DNA from: an uncultured Christensenella sp.
Lineage (GTDB): Bacteria; Bacillota; Clostridia; Christensenellales; CAG-917
Length of the DNA: 64,000 nt
Direction of reading: 5' to 3'
Assembly: GCA_910577815.1 (NCBI GenBank)
Contig: CAJTNO010000006.1
Coordinates: 15,446-79,445 of the forward strand
This document shows, piece by piece, positions 41,302 through 52,595 of this stretch (position 1 is the stretch's first letter; each line of letters begins with the position of its first letter). Made by a program: the position numbers and the translations under genes. The notes beneath the pieces were generated by a model that ran no database searches, had not been told where the DNA came from, and was given only the letters and a program-made list of their open reading frames with translations.

Positions 41302-44300
41302 TCAAACCTTATTTATTTTTATAGCCCTGCCGCCCGTAAGCGTTATCATCTTAACCGCAGGTAACGTAAAGTCGTTGGCTACTATTATAAGCGGCTTTGT
41401 TAGGCGTTGTCCTGCAGTCACTGTGTAGCCCGTGCACTCCTCGCTTACAAGTCCCATTTTCTTAAGCTTTTCAAGCGTTACCCTGTTTCCGTCCTGGAAC
41501 TTTGCGTCTATATCGTCAAGCTTCAGCGTTTCTATATAGCTTTCGTCGATACTCTCCACGTTCTTACTCTCTATGCACTTCTCCGCAAGCTCGTCGGATA
41601 GGACGTCGCAGTCGTGTACGTGCATTACCTCGCACAGCAAGCCCTTATTCTGCTTATTCGTCAATAGCTTGTTGTGCTTAAGCGTGAATATAAGCTCCTG
41701 TATGCTTCTGTCGTTGTAACGCTTCCTCGCTTCCATATTCAGTTCCTGGAATAAGGCGAGTATCAGCTCCTGCGCTCTCGTCAAGGCTCTGTCCGAGGAC
41801 ACGCGTACATACATAGGCACGTCTACAAATCTCGGCTTATCCGATACGTCCTTATGGTGATAACGGCGAGCGTCATATTCATAGGGCTTGAGTGCAAGCC
41901 ACAGCTTGATTGAACGCTTCGCTATGCCTATTACCGCTATTACCTGTCCTTGATAACGTATCTTTTCTACGCGCTTGTATACGCGATAGGTTACGCCCTT
42001 TTGCGAGCAGAACAGATTTTTAACAGCGGCATACCACTCTCTGTTTTTATCCGAGCTTTGCTTTAAGCGCATACGGAAGTTGGGATATGTCTTTTTGACA
42101 GTTCCGTCCTCCTCGATTATGACGGCTTCTACAAAATCGTCGTCATCCTCGTCGAGTATGCTGTCCCATTCCTCCTCGTCATCGTCTATATCGTCGTCAT
42201 CCTCGCGCTCGGCGGCGACATAAACGTTATTGGAGCTTTGCGACATCAACAGTAATTGCTGTTGTAAATCGTCTATTTTAGATACGAGCGAATTATATTT
42301 GTCATCCTGCTCGCCCGGAGCGGTAAGGTATGCGGTAGTTTCAGGCACAATCTGCTGTACTGCGGGCAACAACCTTTCAAATACCTTGTCTGCAATAAGG
42401 TCGGTATCGTCCATACTCGCATAAGACATATTATCCGACTGCTGTCTGCCCATAAGGTTTGCAAGCATAATTTTCATTGCTTCGTCGCGCTTTGCCTGCT
42501 CCTCGCGCAACGCCGCCATCTCCTCGCGGTGACGTTCTTCTTCCTGTCTGCGTCTTTCTTCCATTTCAAGCAGACGCTGTTCAAATATTTCGCTGTCACC
42601 AGACCTTGCCGCCTGAGTTATGCTCTCCTGGAATGCCAGCTGTCTTGCCTCCTGCGCTTCCTCGCGTGCAATTCTTTCCTGCTTCTCCGCCTCGCGCTCC
42701 TGTTTTTCGGCTGTAAGCTTGCGCTGTTCGCTCTCCTCTATAGCCGTTTCCTTGGCAAGCTCCGCCTGCTTCCAACCTCTGCGCGTTAGCAAAGCTATTA
42801 AGAACATCAACAGCATCACTCCGCACAGCGAGAACGCTATTATGCTCCATACCATATTGGACAGGTTAAGCCATACTATGTCTGTTGCAAATATCGGCAA
42901 TAACCCTGCCGCATAGGTCTTGGCGTTATACTTCTTTGCCTCGCCCTTTGCTTTCTTCTTGCGGTTGCCGTACTGTATCGCCTTTATCATAAAGATTAAG
43001 GTAAACAATAATGCCACGCAGGACGTTATCACCTGCCACAGCGGGAAATGACTTTCTATAAGCTTTTCAAAGAATTCCTTTATCTTATCTATAAAGCTTC
43101 CGCCGTCTCCCGGTTTTTCCGGTGGCGTGGGATTGGGATTGTTCGGGTCCTCCACAACGCTGAACGTCAGCGTTATCGCGTCGCGTGTGCCGTCCTCCCA
43201 GACGTAGTTAGCTCCGTCTCTGAATCGGATTACTATTGTGTATTCACCCTTATCCGTTACTGTCAATGAACCCGAAGCTATCGCCATTATGCTGTCGTCA
43301 AAGCCGTCCAGCTCGAAGGTAAGCGTACTTGCAGTATAGAACTTGCTGTCCTCCTTCAACGTCGGCTTTGCTATCGGTGTTGCGGGATTTAACGGGTCCG
43401 CAGGCGTTGTAAACTCCGCATAGTCGTTTACTCCGTCGCTATACTCTATGCGTACGTTATCTCCGTACTTGCTTTCTACCTTTACCCTGAACGTAGTGTT
43501 GTACGTATTCATTACGTCCTCGTACGTCACGGTAGCTCCGTTAAGGTCCGAATATACTCTGTTTATAAAATCTCTGTCGTTTGCATCGTCTACCTGTATA
43601 TTGGGTATGCCTGATGACGTCCAGCCGTTTACCTTTATCACCCTCGGCACTATCTTAACCGTTATGCTTACAAACGTAATGTCCTCGGGGTCGTCCGGAT
43701 TATCCCATACTACGTTGCCCACTCCAAGCTCGGGCTTAAAGCGGAATACAAGCACATAATCGCCTATCTCCTTCGCCGTGTAATCGGTATAAGCCAATCC
43801 GTTTTTCTTGATGTCTATAGTAAGGTAATTAGCCCAGTCCTGCGGCACGCCCAACAGAGATATAAAATCCACGTCTCGGTTATTAAATACTATTTCGTCT
43901 CCCGAGTATGCAGGCTTTGTAACCTTGTGCGTGTTTATGCTCCAATCCAGGGTAAATTCTCTGTCATAGGCGTCAAATGTATCGTCGAGATTTACAAGTC
44001 TTACCTTTGCAACATAGTTACTGCTTACATTGACTTCTATAACGTTACCGCTATATCCCTGTATCTTAACGCCCTTATCCGCAAGAGACGCGCCGTCCGA
44101 TGTGTATTCGGATACGGTAATGGTATATCCTCCGGGTAACCAGGGTAACGCAAATGAGGACGGAACGTTATCGTTTGCCTGCCAAATCAAATCGTCCGCG
44201 GTTATCGTAACCGCTCCGCGTATGTCAAAATTTACGTATTTAGACGCGGTTGCGTCATTCAGTTCATAGTTACAGGTTGAAGGATTGTTGATAACAACTC

Positions 44301-45996
44301 TGACCTTATATTTACCCGCCGCAGTCGGCAAGGTATCAAACTCCGCCCCGCCCGATTGCAGACTGAATTTAAGCACAAGGTCGGGAGCGCGCGCCGTTCC
44401 GTTGTCGGAGGCAAATACGCCCTGAATATTAGTTACTCCGTTTTGGTCGAAGGTAACGCCGATTTTACGCTTGATTATATTAAAGTTGAAGGTACGTTCC
44501 TTGGCGGCACTGCTTGTGGTGGGATTTTTAAAGGAATACTCCGCAGCGGAGCTTTTAATTTTAGCCTTGACAGCTTTAGTACCCGCATTTGTCATATCCG
44601 CAGGATACTCAATATCTAAAATGCTCGCGTCATACCAAGCTTTATCCGCAGGCGCAACGTCGTCCATAGACAACGCATTGCCGGTATACTCTATTGAAAC
44701 ATCTGTCGGTTGATTTATTTCTCTTATCCAATTTTTAGAGGCTTGTGTTAAATTAAGGTGTAAAGCAGGACGTAATACAAAATCCTGACCATCAGAAGTA
44801 GGATAGCTTCTATCACCCGTAGCTGTTAGCGCATATACAGATGCAACATTATAATCACTGCTTCGCATTGCTTGCGTTCCAGTCGAACTTAATATTGCGT
44901 GTCTATTAGGAATGCCCCACAAACTCGTACCATAATCATTCTCAGACTTATAACAACCAGTTTCAGTAATACTTGGCAACCAAAGCCAATCGCTTTTCCA
45001 ATCATAGTACTGCGGCTTAGCTATAAACTGATTTGCATCACTAATATTTGCAGAAGGTCCCGAATACCAACCACCAACACCACCTATTCCTTTTAAACTT
45101 GTATCAGGTCCTGTAATACCATCTGTACCATTACCCCAAGCTTCATTAGGTAGCATCTTCAAATGTGGAGCAACACTTATGTACATACTCCAAACCCAAT
45201 TTTCCGCACGTTGATACACCGCGCTTTCTGGCTGTGCTAAATACTGAGTTAAACTCCTTTTGCCAACTGACGTAGACGATGACATTGTAAATGCTGAAAA
45301 AGGATGATTTATTCTGTCCCCTTGTGTACCCGTAAGTGAGGTTAAACTTTTAGCATACATCGCGCCTGCGTCACCGCCACCGTTTAAAGTAGCTACACGA
45401 ATTTTACTTGTAGAATACATAGAACCAGGATATGGACTACTTGTATTTGAACTTGAATACTCGTTCCACTGATAAGTTCCATCGCATTTTTCGCTCATCC
45501 AAAGCGTTACAATCAAATCGCCTGCTTTGGTATTCCCGTCCGAACCGTCAAGAGTATTGGTTGTTGCATAAACAACATTCCATTTATATCCCCCGAATTC
45601 TACAGTAATTGCGTTGCCACCATTAATATCCTTAAAACCCATTGAATGGGCTTGAGTATTAGTATTTTGCCCTGTACTTGTAGAACCTATAGTTACGCTT
45701 TGATGCGAGTTAACGGCATTATATAAATCAGTATAAGTTGTCTTGCTTGTTGTACCAAGAATTGCAGAATATAACTTATCTAAAACATCACCGTCAAATA
45801 CTTTTCCGTCGACTCGCGTAGCATAATCACTAAGTGTTAATGAGCCAATCGAAGCAGGAGCTACACCTGCAGTATAAGCATTGCTATTTGATAAAGATTG
45901 ACCGTTAAAAGCAAAAATTGCGCTTGTTAAAACAAACGCAAATATTAGTGCGATTATTGCAAAGAATTTTCTATTTCTTTTGCGCGTCAACTCCAT
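41302..45996 (-). CDS. Giant membrane protein: extracellular N-terminal ~980 aa, a TM cluster, then a cytoplasmic Glu/Arg coiled coil, an acidic linker and a uL15-like C-terminal domain
   Basis: 1564 aa. It has an N-terminal signal anchor and three hydrophobic segments near aa 990-1075. After these come EQRKLTAEKQEREAEKQERIAREEAQEARQ…, a poly-Asp/Glu stretch, and a C-terminal ~70 aa that aligns by eye with the ribosomal protein uL15 C-terminus. Confidence 0.7.
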   Translation of the reverse strand: MELTRKRNRKFFAIIALIFAFVLTSAIFAFNGQSLSNSNAYTAGVAPASIGSLTLSDYATRVDGKVFDGDVLDKLYSAILGTTSKTTYTDLYNAVNSHQSVTIGSTSTGQNTNTQAHSMGFKDINGGNAITVEFGGYKWNVVYATTNTLDGSDGNTKAGDLIVTLWMSEKCDGTYQWNEYSSSNTSSPYPGSMYSTSKIRVATLNGGGDAGAMYAKSLTSLTGTQGDRINHPFSAFTMSSSTSVGKRSLTQYLAQPESAVYQRAENWVWSMYISVAPHLKMLPNEAWGNGTDGITGPDTSLKGIGGVGGWYSGPSANISDANQFIAKPQYYDWKSDWLWLPSITETGCYKSENDYGTSLWGIPNRHAILSSTGTQAMRSSDYNVASVYALTATGDRSYPTSDGQDFVLRPALHLNLTQASKNWIREINQPTDVSIEYTGNALSMDDVAPADKAWYDASILDIEYPADMTNAGTKAVKAKIKSSAAEYSFKNPTTSSAAKERTFNFNIIKRKIGVTFDQNGVTNIQGVFASDNGTARAPDLVLKFSLQSGGAEFDTLPTAAGKYKVRVVINNPSTCNYELNDATASKYVNFDIRGAVTITADDLIWQANDNVPSSFALPWLPGGYTITVSEYTSDGASLADKGVKIQGYSGNVIEVNVSSNYVAKVRLVNLDDTFDAYDREFTLDWSINTHKVTKPAYSGDEIVFNNRDVDFISLLGVPQDWANYLTIDIKKNGLAYTDYTAKEIGDYVLVFRFKPELGVGNVVWDNPDDPEDITFVSITVKIVPRVIKVNGWTSSGIPNIQVDDANDRDFINRVYSDLNGATVTYEDVMNTYNTTFRVKVESKYGDNVRIEYSDGVNDYAEFTTPADPLNPATPIAKPTLKEDSKFYTASTLTFELDGFDDSIMAIASGSLTVTDKGEYTIVIRFRDGANYVWEDGTRDAITLTFSVVEDPNNPNPTPPEKPGDGGSFIDKIKEFFEKLIESHFPLWQVITSCVALLFTLIFMIKAIQYGNRKKKAKGEAKKYNAKTYAAGLLPIFATDIVWLNLSNMVWSIIAFSLCGVMLLMFLIALLTRRGWKQAELAKETAIEESEQRKLTAEKQEREAEKQERIAREEAQEARQLAFQESITQAARSGDSEIFEQRLLEMEERRRQEEERHREEMAALREEQAKRDEAMKIMLANLMGRQQSDNMSYASMDDTDLIADKVFERLLPAVQQIVPETTAYLTAPGEQDDKYNSLVSKIDDLQQQLLLMSQSSNNVYVAAEREDDDDIDDDEEEWDSILDEDDDDFVEAVIIEEDGTVKKTYPNFRMRLKQSSDKNREWYAAVKNLFCSQKGVTYRVYKRVEKIRYQGQVIAVIGIAKRSIKLWLALKPYEYDARRYHHKDVSDKPRFVDVPMYVRVSSDRALTRAQELILALFQELNMEARKRYNDRSIQELIFTLKHNKLLTNKQNKGLLCEVMHVHDCDVLSDELAEKCIESKNVESIDESYIETLKLDDIDAKFQDGNRVTLEKLKKMGLVSEECTGYTVTAGQRLTKPLIIVANDFTLPAVKMITLTGGRAIKINKV

Positions 45997-46031: not shown

Positions 46032-46054
46032 CATAGAATATACTGTTCTATGTA
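46032..46054. repeat. Left inverted repeat (lox-like site) of the putative invertible promoter
   Basis: CATAGAA-TATACTG-TTCTATG-TA. It is the exact reverse complement of 46198..46220. Confidence 0.85.
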
Positions 46055-46144
46055 TATCAAAGGTAAATTGAGGAAAAACAATGGTTAAAATTACTCGGAT
46101 ACGGCTTAAAAAGTACGGAAAAATGCGTATTTATGCGAAATATA

Positions 46145-46173
46145 TTGACAAATAATGTAGCTTTAAATAGAAT
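46145..46173 (+). promoter_or_regulatory. Near-consensus sigma-70-type promoter inside the IR-flanked segment, currently pointing away from the 1564-aa gene
   Basis: TTGACA (46145..46150), a 17-nt spacer, then TAGAAT (46168..46173) on the + strand. Confidence 0.6.
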
Positions 46174-46197
46174 TATACTACTAATAAAAAAAGTACG

Positions 46198-46220
46198 TAC
46201 ATAGAACAGTATATTCTATG
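46198..46220. repeat. Right inverted repeat (lox-like site)
   Basis: TA-CATAGAA-CAGTATA-TTCTATG. The arms extend to 10 bp (GTACATAGAA/TTCTATGTAC). Confidence 0.85.
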
Positions 46221-46266
46221 TACATAGCATTAGAAAAATCTACCAATTATCTTATACTTTCATAAA

Positions 46267-46350: not shown

Positions 46351-46380
46351 AAAAAAGCAAACCCTTCGGCTTGCTTTTTT
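46351..46380 (-). terminator. Intrinsic terminator of the 787-aa lipoprotein gene
   Basis: AAAAAAGCAA-ACCCTTCGGC-TTGCTTTTTT, directly after the stop at 46387. Confidence 0.7.
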
Positions 46381-46386
46381 ATGTCT

Positions 46387-48750
46387 TTACGCCTGTAAAG
46401 TATAGGTTGCTTGAAGTTCGTCTGGTCCGTTCCAATCGTCATAAATCTTTAAGGTATTTCCGTTGTCGGATAATACTATCCAACAAGCCGAACCGGTAGG
46501 ATTGCTTGAATTATATTTGAAATTTCCGTCCTTTGTTTCCGTTACGCTCGGAGTCATAGTATTGCCATTCTTCAAATAAAATACAACTTCTCCGGTTTCA
46601 GTATTAAATTCAATATAATCGACATTTAATGCACTGCCTACATAGGTCTTGACTGCTGAAGCCGTTTGATTTTCAAACTTGGCTTCAATGGATGCGTCAG
46701 CCGTCATAACCTCGCTGAGCACAAACTCTGTATTTGTACCTGCAAGCACCCACTTGGAGAACACCTGTCCGGCAGGAGCCGCAGGAGTTTGAATTTTGTC
46801 TGCGTTGGGAGCGGAACCGCTGTTGACAATCTGATTTAAAACTCCGTTTACAGTCAGTGTGAAATATGTTCCCTTTTCAAAGGTTACTGCGGCGGGAGAT
46901 TTTTCCGCTACGCAGAAATAACCCGTAAGATTATTGTCGCCTTGCTTCATAATATGCACATAGGGATTTTCAAATACTTCATAGTACAGAACAACATATT
47001 CTCCTATAACGTTGACGGTAGCCTTTGACAAATTCAGTCCGTAATATGCTCCTGCTTCGGTTATAACCCATTGCTGCGAGCCCTTAATCCATTTGCCGAC
47101 AAAATCCGAAATCTGCTTTTTAACTAAAGTGTCCTTAGTATCAAGCACTATAGCCGCCGCATTCTCGTTATACAAATCAGTAAGCGTAAGCGCGCTGCCG
47201 TTTGAGGTAAGACCGTAAGCCGAATTGTAATCCAGGCTTGTAGCAAACAGCTCGCCTTCGCTTATTATAACGTTATAAGCAACACCGTCCAAAACCGCAT
47301 AGCCCAATGTTATACTATCAACAGTTGCCGCAGCATCCGCAACAATCTGGAATTCGTGTCCCTCTACGTTCCACTTACCCTCCATAGCAATAACAGGATT
47401 TACAAAGGCAGGATGCTCGGAATTCTCCCATATTGCATACAACGTAAGCTTATCGTCGCTCGATACGAGAGGCTCGACCAATTTGGTACCGTTTGCAAGC
47501 ACGCTGCCGTTGGGCGTATTGGACCAACCTGCAAATTCCATACCCGCAGGAGCGGTAAATTTGCAGTCGAAGGCGCTTGTGGTCAATGCCAAATTTGTAG
47601 CATAATCTTTTTTGACTATAGACATCGTGCCTGTTCCGCCGTTTGCGTCAAAGGATATTTCAACCTTATTTTTAGTCCATACAGGCACTATTCTGATATT
47701 TTTTGCAAGCATAACAATCGGTTCGTCAACATTATAGGTTGCTTCCGTTGCCCAGTACGGGTCGCCGCCGCCCTCCTGCGAAGTGGGTATATGCAAATAC
47801 TGCACTCTCCACTTAGTCTGAGTATAATGAGCCAGGCTCAGAGTTGCAGGCACGGTAAAGGTTTCGCCCGCAGCTTTATTTTCTATTACGGGAACTTCGC
47901 CTTTAACGTCGCTTTCGTTTATAGAATAACTATCAGTTTTAATGACGGTTACCGTATAAGTAACACCCGCGTCCTTCCATATCGCGCGCAGAGTATGATT
48001 TTTATTTCCTATAAATTTTTCGCCTGCGGCATAATCCGTCGTGCCGTCCGTCCAGCCGTCAAATACCTTACCGGGATTTGTCAGGCTGTTTCCGTTTGGA
48101 AGCTCAATGGGGCTTACCCATTTTTCCACCCAAATAGGAGCTATACTACCGCTTGCGCCGTTTGCGTCAAAGGTAACCTTCCAGCTGAAAAGTGCGGTTA
48201 TTTCCATATCGGAAGTTACAGGAGCTTCGAAGTTATACTCCTCTCCCGTCGCCTCGTTTACCCAATAGCGGAATATTTTTCCGTCGCTGTTTACGGGGTC
48301 GTCGGCAGGCTTTGCAACCTTTTTACCGCTCTCCACGTTTACGGTCTGGCTCTCGGCGCCGTTATTGGGATTAAATACCACCTTATAAACGGTGGGCTGC
48401 TCCTCTCCGCCGCCCTGGTTCAATGTCCATACTGCGGCAAACTCAACAGCCTTTGCGGGCATTGTAAACTCCGCGCCCGCCGCATAGGTTTTGCCGTCGT
48501 ATGACCATCCTCCAAACGTATGGTCCGCCTTTGTCAGCTCTCCTGCGTCGGGAAGCGTAATTTTAGCTCCCTCCGCATACTCCCCGCCACTCGGAGCAGT
48601 ACCTGTCGCGCCCGCACCGCCCACATACGTCACTGCGTATTTATCGGAATCGGTTTCATTGCCCTGGCTATCATTGCAAGCAACCGCAAGCAGGCTCAAC
48701 ACAAGCAACATCACAATTACGAAAAACACCTTGGAAATCTTGTGTTTCAT
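46387..48750 (-). CDS. Surface lipoprotein with Listeria-Bacteroides (Flg_new) repeats
   Basis: 787 aa with a signal peptide and lipobox-like LLAVAC. Several Flg_new units are present (…HTFGGWSYDGKTYAAGAEFTMPAKAVEFAAVW; …FRYWVNEATGEEYNFEAPVTSDMEITALF). Confidence 0.75.
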   Translation of the reverse strand: MKHKISKVFFVIVMLLVLSLLAVACNDSQGNETDSDKYAVTYVGGAGATGTAPSGGEYAEGAKITLPDAGELTKADHTFGGWSYDGKTYAAGAEFTMPAKAVEFAAVWTLNQGGGEEQPTVYKVVFNPNNGAESQTVNVESGKKVAKPADDPVNSDGKIFRYWVNEATGEEYNFEAPVTSDMEITALFSWKVTFDANGASGSIAPIWVEKWVSPIELPNGNSLTNPGKVFDGWTDGTTDYAAGEKFIGNKNHTLRAIWKDAGVTYTVTVIKTDSYSINESDVKGEVPVIENKAAGETFTVPATLSLAHYTQTKWRVQYLHIPTSQEGGGDPYWATEATYNVDEPIVMLAKNIRIVPVWTKNKVEISFDANGGTGTMSIVKKDYATNLALTTSAFDCKFTAPAGMEFAGWSNTPNGSVLANGTKLVEPLVSSDDKLTLYAIWENSEHPAFVNPVIAMEGKWNVEGHEFQIVADAAATVDSITLGYAVLDGVAYNVIISEGELFATSLDYNSAYGLTSNGSALTLTDLYNENAAAIVLDTKDTLVKKQISDFVGKWIKGSQQWVITEAGAYYGLNLSKATVNVIGEYVVLYYEVFENPYVHIMKQGDNNLTGYFCVAEKSPAAVTFEKGTYFTLTVNGVLNQIVNSGSAPNADKIQTPAAPAGQVFSKWVLAGTNTEFVLSEVMTADASIEAKFENQTASAVKTYVGSALNVDYIEFNTETGEVVFYLKNGNTMTPSVTETKDGNFKYNSSNPTGSACWIVLSDNGNTLKIYDDWNGPDELQATYTLQA

Positions 48751-48824
48751 AAATCTATCTCCTTTTATTTAGAATACTAATAAACGTCTTTTGTATTATC
48801 CGTAGCAGTAGCGCACAACTTCGC

Positions 48825-51800
48825 TTATGCCACGCTCGTCTGCGAATAGGTATAGGTAAACGTAGTTTTATCGGCAGAAAGCACAATGGTAATTATAAAT
48901 TTCTTATCCTTATAAATTCTCTCGAACGTGTACGAATTGCCGTTAATATCGGTAGCATAAACGCCGTAGTCGCCGTTATCGGGCATCATAATATCGTTGC
49001 CCTTATCGTCCTGACCTACTACGATATTGAGCTTTCCGTAGATATAGGTAAAGTTCGGAGTATTGTGCAAAGTGAGCGAGCTTCCGTCCGCCGCGCTAAC
49101 CGTAAGTCTTATTTCGGCGGCGGTCTTTTTGTATTCGAGCGTAGTGCCCACGATTGAGAAATTAAAATCATAGTATTTTCCGTCGCTGTCGAGGAACATA
49201 CTGATTTTCTTAATTCCGTAGCCTGAAATATACATCTTTGCGGGAGTTCCGTTTAAGGTCACGTCGGCATAGCCCGCATATCCGTTATCCTCGTAGGTTT
49301 CGGGAAGCAGGTCCACGGGATTGCACTTAAGCGTATAATTTCCGTCTGCGGACCTATAAGTCATCTCGCCCGTAACCTTTATAAATTCATACGTAGTCGA
49401 GCCTATCGTAACGGTGATTATGCCGTCCTTGATAGTACCCTCCACCTGATAATAGCGTGCGGTTTCCAGGTCGTACTCATAGAAGGTTATCGTTTCGCCG
49501 TCGATTTTGTACATCATCACGTAGGTGGACAGCAAAAACGCCCTTCCGTCCAGCTCGAGCGGGTCGGTTCCGTCAAGATACAGTCCCTTTTCGTCGCCCG
49601 ATTCTATATACAAATGTCTGTTATAAGCGGCAAAGGTAGACTCCTCGAAGCATTTTATTGCAACGTTAATATCGTTTACCTTTATACGGGTGGCAATATT
49701 TCCGCTAAAGACCTTTTCTCCCATAATCGGCGCATTTTCTCCCAAAAGCTCTATAAACAGCGGTCCGTGTTCAAGCTGCATATTGGTTTCCATAAACGCC
49801 GCCGCGCCTATTTTCTTTATATTCGCGCCTATCCTTACTCGCAGAAGCCCGTAACAGCTCTGGAATGCGCCTATTCCTATTTCTTCGACAGAATTCAGCT
49901 CAATTACTCCGTCCGTCGCCGTTGACAGCTTTTCGCAACCGGCAAACGCTCCGTCGCCAATAACAGTCACGTTTGTAAATATAACGCTCTCGAGATTTAC
50001 GCAAAGCTCAAACGCACCCTCGCCTATCGTCATAACTCTGTTAAGGTCTACGCTCTTAAGCTCGGCAAGTCCCCTGAATACGTTTTCCGCAATAGCGGTA
50101 ACCTCGTTGGGAATGACAAGCTCGAGTGCCTCGGGCGCGTCGGGCTGCACGTTATAACGCACAAGCACTCCGTCAACTATTTCAAATTCGGGCAACAGAG
50201 TTACCTCCACCGAGCCCTTTATCGTGTAAGGACAATCCGTCCAAGCATTTTTATAAGCGTCCTGGAAGCCCTCGGGAACGACAATAATTGTACCCGCGCC
50301 GCCCCACCTGAACGGGTCATTCTCCTTGGACCAATCTATTTCTATAGGAGTTTCGGACATAAACACTACGCGCCTCAACGTGTATTCGTTTTGGAAAGCG
50401 CGGCTGCCTATGCTTGTAACGCTCGACGGAATGACAACGGACAGAATTGAAACATCCGTATTGACATAATTGAACACGTTATCCGCAATAGCGGTAACTC
50501 CGTCGGGAATGACTATGATTTTTGATTCCCCCTGATAAGACACAAGCGTAGTTCCGTCGAGGATATAGCCCGTAGTGCTTACGGTAAAGGTTTTATCCGT
50601 CCAATCGACGTTAAAGAACATTTTTCCGCCCGCTGTAACCGTCTCGTCCGGACCTTCTGCATAAGGAACATAAGTAAGAAGATTTCCCGTACTGCTAAGA
50701 GTAAAATAACCCACGTAGCTCATTCCGCCCGCAGCAGAATACTGCGCGCTGCCATAGCCGTCGAGATACAGCGCGGAGCCGTCAGCACCCGTAAGCGTGA
50801 GGTTCATATCGGCGTTATACTCGATGTATACGGGGACGTTGCCCGAAGTCGGGTCCTGTATCATATTGATAATAAAATTAAATCTCTCGCTATTGTCCGA
50901 AGCTACAAATGTCCACTCGCCATACTCGCTCTCGTACTTATCCGTACCGAAATACTCTCCCGTAGCAATCAGCGAGGTAACGTCGTTAACCGCGTCGTAG
51001 GAATACCACTTGGCAAGTCCGTAGCCGTTGAGGTCGAGGCGGTAATTGAGAAGCTCGCCGTTGTCGTACCACAAATATGAGCCGCTCTCCATACCCAAAA
51101 AGGTAAAGCAGCCTATAAACTGATTATCCTCCATATTCACGTCGGGCGCGCCAAGCTCTATGGACATTATGCTCTGCATCGGCTTATCGCCGTCGGGGAT
51201 GTCCTCGCCGGTATCGGGATTGACGTACGTAAACGTGTAATCGCCGTATTTGGAATCATACACATAGCGACCGTAGCTGACCGTCTTTATCTGGTCGTAA
51301 ATGACCTGCGACACTATAGCCTCGCCGAAGCCGTCCGCGGTAAGCACGTAAGTATCATAGGATTTTGTAACGTAATCGTAATACAGGAATGACCCCTTAA
51401 GTCCGTCGCTGAAGGCATATGTATTATCGTCGTACAAACGACCGTTTACAACGCCCACAACGCCGTAGTCGTCCTCCTCGCCGAAGTAAAACTCGAACTC
51501 ATAATAATCGTCGGAGGCATCTGCCCTCTGCGACACAAAACCGAGCTTATTGGGCTTGCCCTCTCGCACAAGTATAATCGCGCCGTTTCCCTTGCCTATA
51601 TACTCGAAATACAGATAGAGCTTATCCGTACTTTGCTCGCGGGCGTCGGTCACCTCGAAAGCCCATTGCGCATATAGGGTAATATCCTTATCACCGAGAA
51701 CAAGCGAATCGCCTGCAAGATACTGTCCGTCGATTTTATTTCCGAACTGCGAAACAAGTCCGTCCTTACTTGTGGACCAGCCGATAAACAACCATCCCTC

Positions 51801-52241
51801 GGCATTGTACGCCCTTCCGTCCTTCACGGTAATCGTATCGCCGGGCTCGCCGTGCGAAGGAGAAAGCTCACCCGTATGAGAAGCGGTGGGCAGATTAAAA
51901 TCGTAATAAACCTTAATAGAACCCATCGGCTCCGAGAATTTAGCATAGTATGTAACATTTTTTGCCGGCATCACGGTAGGCAGCTGCACAGGCTCGCCCT
52001 CAAACTTAGCGTTGTCAAACCAGCCCTCGAAGGTGCAGTTTTCCTTTACGGGGTCGGACGGCGGAGTGATTTGCGCACCCGCCTCCGCCACAATGGTCGC
52101 TATATCAACACCCTCCGCTACAAAAGACATCGTATACGTTTGCGTTTGATTGCACGCGACTGCCGTAACAGTCATAAACAGTGCCAAAACAAACACGCAT
52201 CCCAATTTAATAAATCTGTTAGCTTTCAACATTTTTTTCAT
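48825..52241 (-). CDS. Surface lipoprotein with a Flg_new repeat and BspA-type leucine-rich repeats
   Basis: 1138 aa with a signal peptide and lipobox-like VTAVAC. One Flg_new unit (CTFEGWFDNAKFEGEPVQLPTVMPAKNVTYYAKF) and LRR_5/BspA-like units (IPDGVTAIADNVF…VVIPSSVTSIGSRAFQN…; IPNEVTAIAENVFRG…). Confidence 0.75.
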   Translation of the reverse strand: MKKMLKANRFIKLGCVFVLALFMTVTAVACNQTQTYTMSFVAEGVDIATIVAEAGAQITPPSDPVKENCTFEGWFDNAKFEGEPVQLPTVMPAKNVTYYAKFSEPMGSIKVYYDFNLPTASHTGELSPSHGEPGDTITVKDGRAYNAEGWLFIGWSTSKDGLVSQFGNKIDGQYLAGDSLVLGDKDITLYAQWAFEVTDAREQSTDKLYLYFEYIGKGNGAIILVREGKPNKLGFVSQRADASDDYYEFEFYFGEEDDYGVVGVVNGRLYDDNTYAFSDGLKGSFLYYDYVTKSYDTYVLTADGFGEAIVSQVIYDQIKTVSYGRYVYDSKYGDYTFTYVNPDTGEDIPDGDKPMQSIMSIELGAPDVNMEDNQFIGCFTFLGMESGSYLWYDNGELLNYRLDLNGYGLAKWYSYDAVNDVTSLIATGEYFGTDKYESEYGEWTFVASDNSERFNFIINMIQDPTSGNVPVYIEYNADMNLTLTGADGSALYLDGYGSAQYSAAGGMSYVGYFTLSSTGNLLTYVPYAEGPDETVTAGGKMFFNVDWTDKTFTVSTTGYILDGTTLVSYQGESKIIVIPDGVTAIADNVFNYVNTDVSILSVVIPSSVTSIGSRAFQNEYTLRRVVFMSETPIEIDWSKENDPFRWGGAGTIIVVPEGFQDAYKNAWTDCPYTIKGSVEVTLLPEFEIVDGVLVRYNVQPDAPEALELVIPNEVTAIAENVFRGLAELKSVDLNRVMTIGEGAFELCVNLESVIFTNVTVIGDGAFAGCEKLSTATDGVIELNSVEEIGIGAFQSCYGLLRVRIGANIKKIGAAAFMETNMQLEHGPLFIELLGENAPIMGEKVFSGNIATRIKVNDINVAIKCFEESTFAAYNRHLYIESGDEKGLYLDGTDPLELDGRAFLLSTYVMMYKIDGETITFYEYDLETARYYQVEGTIKDGIITVTIGSTTYEFIKVTGEMTYRSADGNYTLKCNPVDLLPETYEDNGYAGYADVTLNGTPAKMYISGYGIKKISMFLDSDGKYYDFNFSIVGTTLEYKKTAAEIRLTVSAADGSSLTLHNTPNFTYIYGKLNIVVGQDDKGNDIMMPDNGDYGVYATDINGNSYTFERIYKDKKFIITIVLSADKTTFTYTYSQTSVA

Positions 52242-52306
52242 ACTTTATCTCCCGCTGACTGCGCAAACCTGCATAACTCAACGAATAAACTATATTTATT
52301 TCTAAA

Positions 52307-52335
52307 AGTATACCCCCCCCCTATACGATTGTCAA
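52307..52335 (-). promoter_or_regulatory. Promoter of the lipoprotein operon with a G9 homopolymer (C9 on the + strand) in the spacer
   Basis: The - strand reads TTGACA (52335..52330), ATCGTATA, GGGGGGGGG, TATACT (52312..52307). The spacer is exactly 17 nt, 9 of them the G-tract (52313..52321). The ATG lies 66 nt downstream. Confidence 0.6.
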
Positions 52336-52595
52336 CAAAATTATCCACATTTTATACGAAGTTATGCATATTTTTTAAGAATACAATTTTAAAAAATATC
52401 AAGATTCCAAGAATATATTCGAATATATTTATATTAAAGTGATATTTATAGCAATGATAATTAAATAAAAACAAAAGCAACAAAAAAAGCGCTCCGTACG
52501 GAACGCATAAATTCACAAAATTTGTATAATTATTCACAAATATATTTAAATTCAAAAAACAGACAAACTTAAAATTCTAATAGAAAATCATACTT

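Follow-up and report, generated by a model that had tools for sequence, protein, structure and literature searches.

A poly-G tract in the promoter spacer of a surface-lipoprotein operon as a probable slippage-based switch in an uncultured gut Christensenella

Background

Promoter switches based on homopolymers are textbook examples for a few pathogens, namely Neisseria, Treponema pallidum, and the mycoplasmas. In Mycoplasma hyorhinis, for instance, the vlp genes encoding variable lipoproteins carry a poly-A run in each promoter spacer. Phase variation in gut commensals, in turn, has been studied mostly through invertons and epigenetic switches. In T. pallidum, the gene tp0126 has a poly-G run between its -35 and -10 elements, and variants with 7–11 G coexist in vivo (PMC7864442). 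Transcription of tp0126 and of Neisseria meningitidis porA is best when the poly-G run produces a 17-nt spacer (PMC7864442). In Candidatus Mycoplasma girerdii, simple repeats switch BspA-like proteins as well as restriction–modification methylases, and the variation was read from metagenomic data (PMC5476646). A full-text literature search returned no paper that ties Christensenellales to repeat-mediated phase variation.

The window analyzed here is a stretch of 64,000 nucleotides from an uncultured Christensenella sp., represented by a 1.58-Mb, 46% G+C metagenome-assembled genome (MAG) of 22 contigs from the mouse gut. Within it, a run of nine G occupies the spacer of a promoter that precedes a lipoprotein operon. 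The mechanism proposed for this tract matches the known porA/tp0126/vlp type and appears well supported at this locus.

Going by the account of porA in PMC7864442, the likeness to that gene lies in a G homopolymer within the sigma-70-type spacer of a surface-protein gene, where a change of one G would grade expression around 17 nt. The two systems differ in their hosts, which are a monoderm, uncultured Clostridia commensal of the gut here and a proteobacterial pathogen for porA. They also differ in the position of the tract, which here abuts the -10 hexamer directly, and in the target, which is not a porin but a two-gene Flg_new operon led by a BspA-LRR lipoprotein. The tp0126 gene, encoding an OmpW homologue, and tprL likewise have a poly-G run within the promoter (PMC7864442); in T. 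pallidum, however, variation was measured within isolates and accompanied by reporter assays, whereas the present data consist of consensus lengths compared between samples.

With the vlp system, the locus shares the principle of spacer homopolymers that control surface lipoproteins, and three related genomes (G079, G080, and G114) contain paralogues with tracts of their own. In contrast to vlp, where each paralogue has a tract-bearing promoter, the genome of the window has a single promoter-type tract, its other lipoprotein switches act on the coding frame, and the repeated base is G rather than A. Ca. M. girerdii offers the same kinds of targets, BspA-type LRR surface proteins and a DNA methyltransferase (PMC5476646). 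Its repeats, however, are mostly dinucleotides located inside ORFs that act by frameshift, whereas the switch considered here would be transcriptional (PMC5476646).

Promoter architecture and use

On the minus strand, positions 52335..52307 read TTGACA-ATCGTATA-G9-TATACT. The -35 hexamer TTGACA (52330..52335) is a perfect consensus and the -10 hexamer TATACT (52307..52312) agrees with the consensus at five of six positions; both are the same in the orthologous promoters of two sister species, G062 and G068. The spacer of 17 nt begins with a non-repetitive portion, ATCGTATA (52322..52329), for which no change was reported in any of the 20 sequencing runs surveyed. Its 3' half is the variable element, the G9 homopolymer GGGGGGGGG (52313..52321; C9 on the plus strand), so that the last nine bases of the spacer are all G. 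Direct reading of the minus strand thus confirms the arrangement of hexamers, spacer, and G run that the initial annotation had described. Further downstream, a Shine–Dalgarno sequence, GGGAG (52249..52253, minus strand), lies 7 nt before the ATG at 52241.

In a consensus scan of 9 kb, the site was one of only three 11/12 matches. Weaker promoter-like matches numbered 18, against 19.4 expected from shuffled sequences. Since such weak matches are no more common than in shuffles, the hexamers alone prove little, and the use of the promoter was assessed from RNA.

The RNA set compared with the promoter region consists of assembled RNA-seq contigs from two transcriptomic RNA-Seq runs (X26 and X27) and two metatranscriptomic runs (X28 and X29). 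Transcription is predicted to start at approximately 52300, within a start zone spanning 52277..52302 on the minus strand. The 5' ends of the RNA contigs covering the lipoprotein gene lie at 52290 (X29), 52284 (X26), 52283 (X27), and 52277 (X28), and an Illumina adapter is joined directly to the contig end at 52284 in X26 and at 52277 in X28. These ends are located 10–23 nt inside the predicted start, and shortening by such lengths is the usual loss at the ends of RNA-seq and k-mer contigs. Between 52290 and the tract there is no room for another promoter, and RNA is absent from 52291-52584 in all four runs.

The upstream gene, which encodes a glycosyltransferase, is represented by separate contigs, and the RNA depth of the operon is 3–10 times that of this neighbor. 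The 9-kb scan also located a terminator-like hairpin of the glycosyltransferase gene at 52489..52506 on the minus strand, with no RNA between the hairpin and the promoter. This hairpin insulates the operon from upstream read-through, and read-through as a source of the operon RNA is excluded because the 300-bp intergenic region is devoid of RNA. The tract-bearing promoter is the promoter in use. The proposal that it drives the gene for the 1138-aa LRR lipoprotein is borne out by RNA 5' ends falling at 52277-52290, with the upstream DNA silent as far as the neighboring gene. Expression of the operon was strong in each of the five RNA runs analyzed. As the transcripts begin downstream of the tract, they carry no information on how many G it contains.

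The count of nine G in the window is not a slip of assembly, as G9 is also found in an ENA scaffold and in an independent Logan contig of word depth 37 from X1, the probable source sample. The scaffold was obtained by an exact-protein look-up of the lipoprotein, which returned only the same strain, in the form of this scaffold with an identical protein. The corresponding look-up of the upstream glycosyltransferase gave no match, nor did an exact scan of JGI metagenome contigs for the promoter with its left flank.

Two-gene lipoprotein operon

The first gene (48825..52241, minus strand) encodes the 1138-aa lipoprotein, which has Flg_new and BspA-type LRR_5 domains and a lipobox TAVAC/N (the slash marking the cleavage site). 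The second gene (46387..48750, minus strand) is co-transcribed with the first; its product of 787 aa, which the initial annotation classed as a lipoprotein, has a hydrophobic N-terminus and contains Flg_new and Flg_new_2 domains. The lipobox and the Flg_new/LRR_5 domains of the first product, together with the Flg_new domains of the second, identify the controlled function as one of the cell surface.

An intrinsic terminator, AAGCAAGCC-GAAG-GGTTTGCTT followed by a T run (46351..46376, minus strand), sits directly 3' of the stop codon of the 787-aa ORF; its predicted stability is -18 kcal/mol, with a z-score of -5.1 relative to shuffles. Single RNA contigs of 5925 nt (X26) and 5926 nt (X28), with adapters at both ends, span both genes and run from 52284 to 46405 and from 52277 to 46393, respectively, and RNA contigs in general end at 46390-46410. 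Across the 74-bp gap between the genes (48751-48824) the RNA is continuous. The gap contains an AAGGAG ribosome-binding site, and no hairpin was found in it. The initial annotation had considered it probable that the promoter also drives the 787-aa gene, because only 74 bp and no visible terminator separate the two; the 5.9-kb contigs, which cross the gap and end at the terminator, bear this out. The complete transcription unit thus comprises the promoter, a 59-nt leader, the first gene, the second gene, and the terminator.

The operon RNA stops at approximately 46390, roughly 170 bp before a putative invertible promoter at 46032-46220, which lies 6 kb from the G tract, and only small unrelated contigs lie between them. 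A contig piece from a further RNA run, X30, spans 46194-46223 and passes into unrelated sequence at 46223, which is the edge of the putative invertible segment. Such a junction may have arisen from the segment in its opposite orientation. Downstream of the putative inverton, a 1564-aa ORF (41302-45996, minus strand) contains a Pfam Ribosomal_L27A (uL15-like) match at residues 1491-1558 (E = 1e-8).

Tract length across gut samples

Tract length was surveyed in the Logan contigs of 20 public runs, which are assembled and provide one consensus per sample. The tract is G9 in six of the 20 runs (X1, X7, X8, X9, X10, and X20), G10 in ten (X2, X3, X4, X5, X6, X11, X14, X17, X18, and X19), as well as in one contig of X16, and G11 in one (X12). 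X17 and X18, which are listed as one sample, give identical results. In the three remaining runs (X13, X15, and X16), the contigs break exactly at the tract, and the two contigs overlap only within it or beside it. A de Bruijn assembler is expected to break where two lengths coexist, and the breaks suggest mixed lengths within these samples.

The length of the tract varies by single units, from 9 to 10 to 11 G across the 20 runs, and it does so independently of the flanks. The flanking haplotype 52233A/52397C/52406A occurs with G9 in X7, X8, X9, and X20 and with G10 in X11, X14, X16, and X17, where identity of haplotype refers to 250–800 bp of flanking sequence and does not prove identity of strain. 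Within a single study, P11, X14 has G10 and X20 has G9. Other intergenic indels (52417, and an inserted AAT at 52463) are consistent within strains. As different lengths are found on the same haplotype and within the same study, the tract changes faster than its flanks. The comparison of samples that had been suggested along with the switch hypothesis thus yielded 9, 10, and 11 G, even with identical flanks or within one study.

A second tract provides a control. It is a G10 run at C1:188528-188537 (L156 5529-5538) in the coding region of a paralogous gene for a 1238-aa LRR_5/Flg_new lipoprotein, which is ON in this assembly. In the 11-kb stretch examined around it, X4 and X6 have a tract of 10 bases and X9 and X5 one of 11, and with 11 the protein is truncated at residue 107. 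No indel in the 3.7-kb ORF shifts the frame other than the one at this C tract. An A8 run located 2 kb from it does not vary, unlike another A8 run in a more distant divergent spacer. The promoter and coding tracts vary independently of each other, the combinations being G9/G11 in X9, G10/G11 in X5, and G10/G10 in X4 and X6.

The most serious alternative to a rapidly slipping tract is that the lengths are stable alleles of strains, which either tune promoter strength slowly or have no effect. Each Logan assembly reports one consensus length per sample, the three runs of study P6 are all G9, and the flanking SNP haplotypes differ among runs, so that several strains are represented, all of which would suit such alleles. 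They are nevertheless an unlikely explanation, given that one flanking haplotype is found with both 9 and 10 G, that the two P11 runs differ by one G, that three assemblies break at the very position where mixed lengths would make them break, and that the second genomic tract follows a course of its own in X9, X4, X6, and X5. A slippage-prone tract agrees better with these observations, and changes in length would then be frequent and reversible within a lineage or clone.

Orthologous promoters in sister species

A DNA search for the intergenic region in 40 relatives found no orthologous spacer, its only match being the conserved core of the promoter in front of a non-orthologous G006 gene; the orthologues themselves came from pattern and protein searches. 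The operon is present in only two of the 51 other genomes of the genus, namely G062 (63% identity over 1135 aa) and G068 (62% over the first 400 aa). Between TTGACA and TATACT, the spacer is ATCGTATAGGGGGGGGG in the genome of the window, ATCAGATACGGAGGGGA in G062, and ATATTCCGACGCAGAGT in G068. The spacers of the two sister species are exactly 17 nt long and lack a homopolymer, and the window's own spacer is three substitutions away from that of G062.

The retention of both hexamers and of a 17-nt distance, while the sequence of the spacer drifts, indicates that the spacing is under selection and that 17 nt, corresponding to G9, is the selected value. From this it follows that G10 and G11 are departures from the optimum. 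G9 thus represents the canonical spacing, and the homopolymer is a derived feature of the window's species.

The leaders also differ. In the orthologous loci L161 and L163, the -10 hexamer is separated from the conserved TTTTA of the leader by an additional 20 bases (AAATCAATTAATATCATAGT-like). The window's species lacks these bases, and the leaders are distinguished by a clean 20-nt indel at the start region.

Long G/C tracts elsewhere in the genome

Runs of G or C with lengths of 3, 4, 5, 6, and 7 number 18365, 2426, 345, 30, and 1 in the genome, a drop of about 11-fold per added base. Extrapolation of this trend predicts 0.18 runs of at least 8 bases; six are seen (G8, two G9, two G10, and C13), about 35 times more. 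An excess of long runs over plain base composition was also considered and provides a weak argument, as about four runs of at least 9 are expected from base frequencies. Consequently, the case against chance rests on the bimodal distribution of run lengths. The promoter tract is not a chance feature.

Most runs of at least 8 lie in or before genes for Flg_new/LRR lipoproteins or in a DNA methylase gene. The suggested check of other surface-protein promoters of the genome for G/C tracts thus yielded runs in or before lipoprotein genes. Besides the control tract described above, a G8 run at C1:439730 lies in the gene for a 936-aa Flg_new lipoprotein, which is ON in this assembly. The C13 run (C1:327073-327085; L158 2074-2086) comes directly after the lipobox MAKLKYYLSATILTVFVTLLFSAC/D (…LLFSAC/D) of a lipoprotein signal peptide. 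At 13 C, translation would end about 46 codons into the frame, the OFF state; 11 or 14 C would join the frame to a body of ~350 aa and turn it ON. The gene that follows encodes a 653-aa Flg_new lipoprotein.

The methylase locus (C1:37540-38816; L157 1041-2317) contains a 184-aa N-terminal ORF without a Pfam match and an N6_N4_Mtase domain. A G10 run at C1:38282 splits the two, leaving the methylase OFF at 10; with 8 or 11 G, a protein of ~424 aa would result. A G9 run at C1:38946 lies 130 nt upstream of the gene. The arrangement makes the methylase a candidate phase-variable methyltransferase.

Loss of mismatch repair as a source of hypermutability was ruled out, since genes for MutS and MutL are present, as is one for MutS2. 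The tracts are accordingly hypermutable despite mismatch repair, and the tracts of Neisseria are likewise hypermutable in its presence.

Recurrence of the design in the family

In the 108 genomes of the family, the pattern TTGAC-N(1-12)-G(7 or more)-TAnAMT has 26 matches in 19 genomes, and the reversed control pattern has none. The spacers of these matches measure 13 nt (1 match), 14 nt (1), 15 nt (4), 16 nt (9), 17 nt (6), and 18 nt (5). The family contains 418 tracts of at least G9, about 3.9 per genome, of which 24 have promoter geometry; about 0.01–0.03 would be expected by chance. Among GTDB species representatives, a stricter G9 pattern occurs in at least 120 stretches, many from MAGs of gut Clostridia, and the matches listed also include Treponema, Saccharibacteria, Streptococcus pneumoniae, Moraxella, and Helicobacter.

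About half of the poly-G promoters in the family precede genes for lipoproteins or membrane-anchored LRR proteins. The downstream genes encode six BspA-LRR-like lipoproteins or membrane-anchored proteins, two substrate-binding lipoproteins, four other lipoproteins, two membrane proteins, four ABC ATPases, and a few cytoplasmic proteins. In five species of the genus (G055, G056, G058, G019, and G001, at loci L012, L013, L014, L016, and L021), the same membrane-protein gene (MEREQKNQ…) is preceded by TTGACA-[AG]AAACGC-Gn-TAGAAT. The tract is G9, with a 16-nt spacer, in four of these species and G11, with an 18-nt spacer, in one; it has been maintained across species while its length varies. In G079, G080, and G114, paralogous lipoprotein genes (4, 3, and 2, respectively) have near-identical promoters and signal peptides, and each has its own tract.

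A DnaA-box-like 9-mer, TGTGGATAA (52341..52349, minus strand), the reverse complement of the DnaA box TTATCCACA, lies 5 nt upstream of the -35 hexamer in the window. The same distance is kept in the orthologous promoter of G062 and in a poly-G promoter of G006 that is not orthologous, with the motif located at L002 1500-1515 and L161 838-846; it lies 12 nt upstream in two G114 promoters, and G070 has variants of it. The promoter cores of the window's genome (G000) and G006 are 83% identical, and the genes that they drive share only LRR repeats, at 23–27% identity. Across the family, the motif combined with the promoter pattern has 7 matches, compared with 1 for the control. The motif is absent from the orthologous promoter of G068, which weakens the idea of an essential DnaA box.

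The genome and family comparisons bear on the possibility that the tract is a neutral hotspot, one that slips while the promoter performs equally at 16–19 nt or while the operon is controlled mainly elsewhere. That G10, with its 18-nt spacer, is the commonest length and that expression is strong in every RNA run examined would be natural under neutrality. This explanation is nonetheless improbable, as the genome purges G/C runs elsewhere and keeps long ones at lipoprotein genes and the methylase gene, the orthologous spacers are held at exactly 17 nt despite drift in their sequence, and the design is enriched more than 1000-fold over chance among the 418 long tracts of the family.

Proposed mechanism

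In the preferred reading, which is regarded as probable, the G9 run is a slippage-prone tract in the spacer of a sigma-A (sigma-70 type) promoter that tunes a bicistronic surface-protein operon. With nine G, the -35 and -10 hexamers are 17 nt apart, a distance that the orthologues in the sister species share. Slippage during replication would add or remove a G, giving spacers of 18 or 19 nt (G10 and G11) and presumably of 16 nt (G8). The altered spacing would misalign the hexamers for RNA polymerase and reduce transcription of both genes, so that one G more or less is expected to change expression. In this way, a gut commensal would dim a surface structure, or switch it ON and OFF, in a heritable, reversible, and stochastic manner.

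Many sigma-A promoters tolerate the 18-nt spacing that corresponds to G10. With most samples being G10, the effect of length may be modest rather than ON/OFF, and the predominance of this length points to a dimmer that is often turned down, not to a strict ON/OFF switch.

An origin of the length differences in sequencing or assembly errors is highly improbable: although homopolymers are error-prone in short reads and many runs have a depth of only 5–10x, calls are consistent at depths of 21–37 (G9 in X1, G10 in X5 and X6), the two runs X17 and X18 of one sample agree, the remaining regional indels are strain-consistent, and the control ORF shifts frame at its C tract alone, with the A8 run 2 kb off unchanged.

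Beyond the slippage switch at this operon, a broader interpretation is put forward tentatively, as somewhat less than an even chance. Poly-G runs placed directly against the -10 hexamer of sigma-A promoters that otherwise fit the consensus might constitute a recurrent, independently evolving class of contingency switches in uncultured gut Clostridia with small genomes, the birth of one of which would have been caught here. Together with the frame-shifting tracts and the putative inverton, they might make up a 'phasome' of several layers, with Flg_new/BspA-LRR surface lipoproteins and a DNA methylase as its targets, and the conserved DnaA-box-like motif ahead of several such promoters might add trans-acting control.

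Significance

For an uncultured commensal, the in-silico evidence at this locus is unusually complete: it combines a promoter verified by RNA, an operon followed from end to end, a tract that is polymorphic in gut populations, and orthologues that show the ancestral, non-switching state. When MAGs differ by a single base at such a tract, the difference may be biological and should not simply be put down to faulty assembly. In bacteria of this kind, the set of surface proteins can vary from cell to cell and from host to host while gene content stays the same, which bears on the interpretation of host–microbe and phage–microbe relationships.
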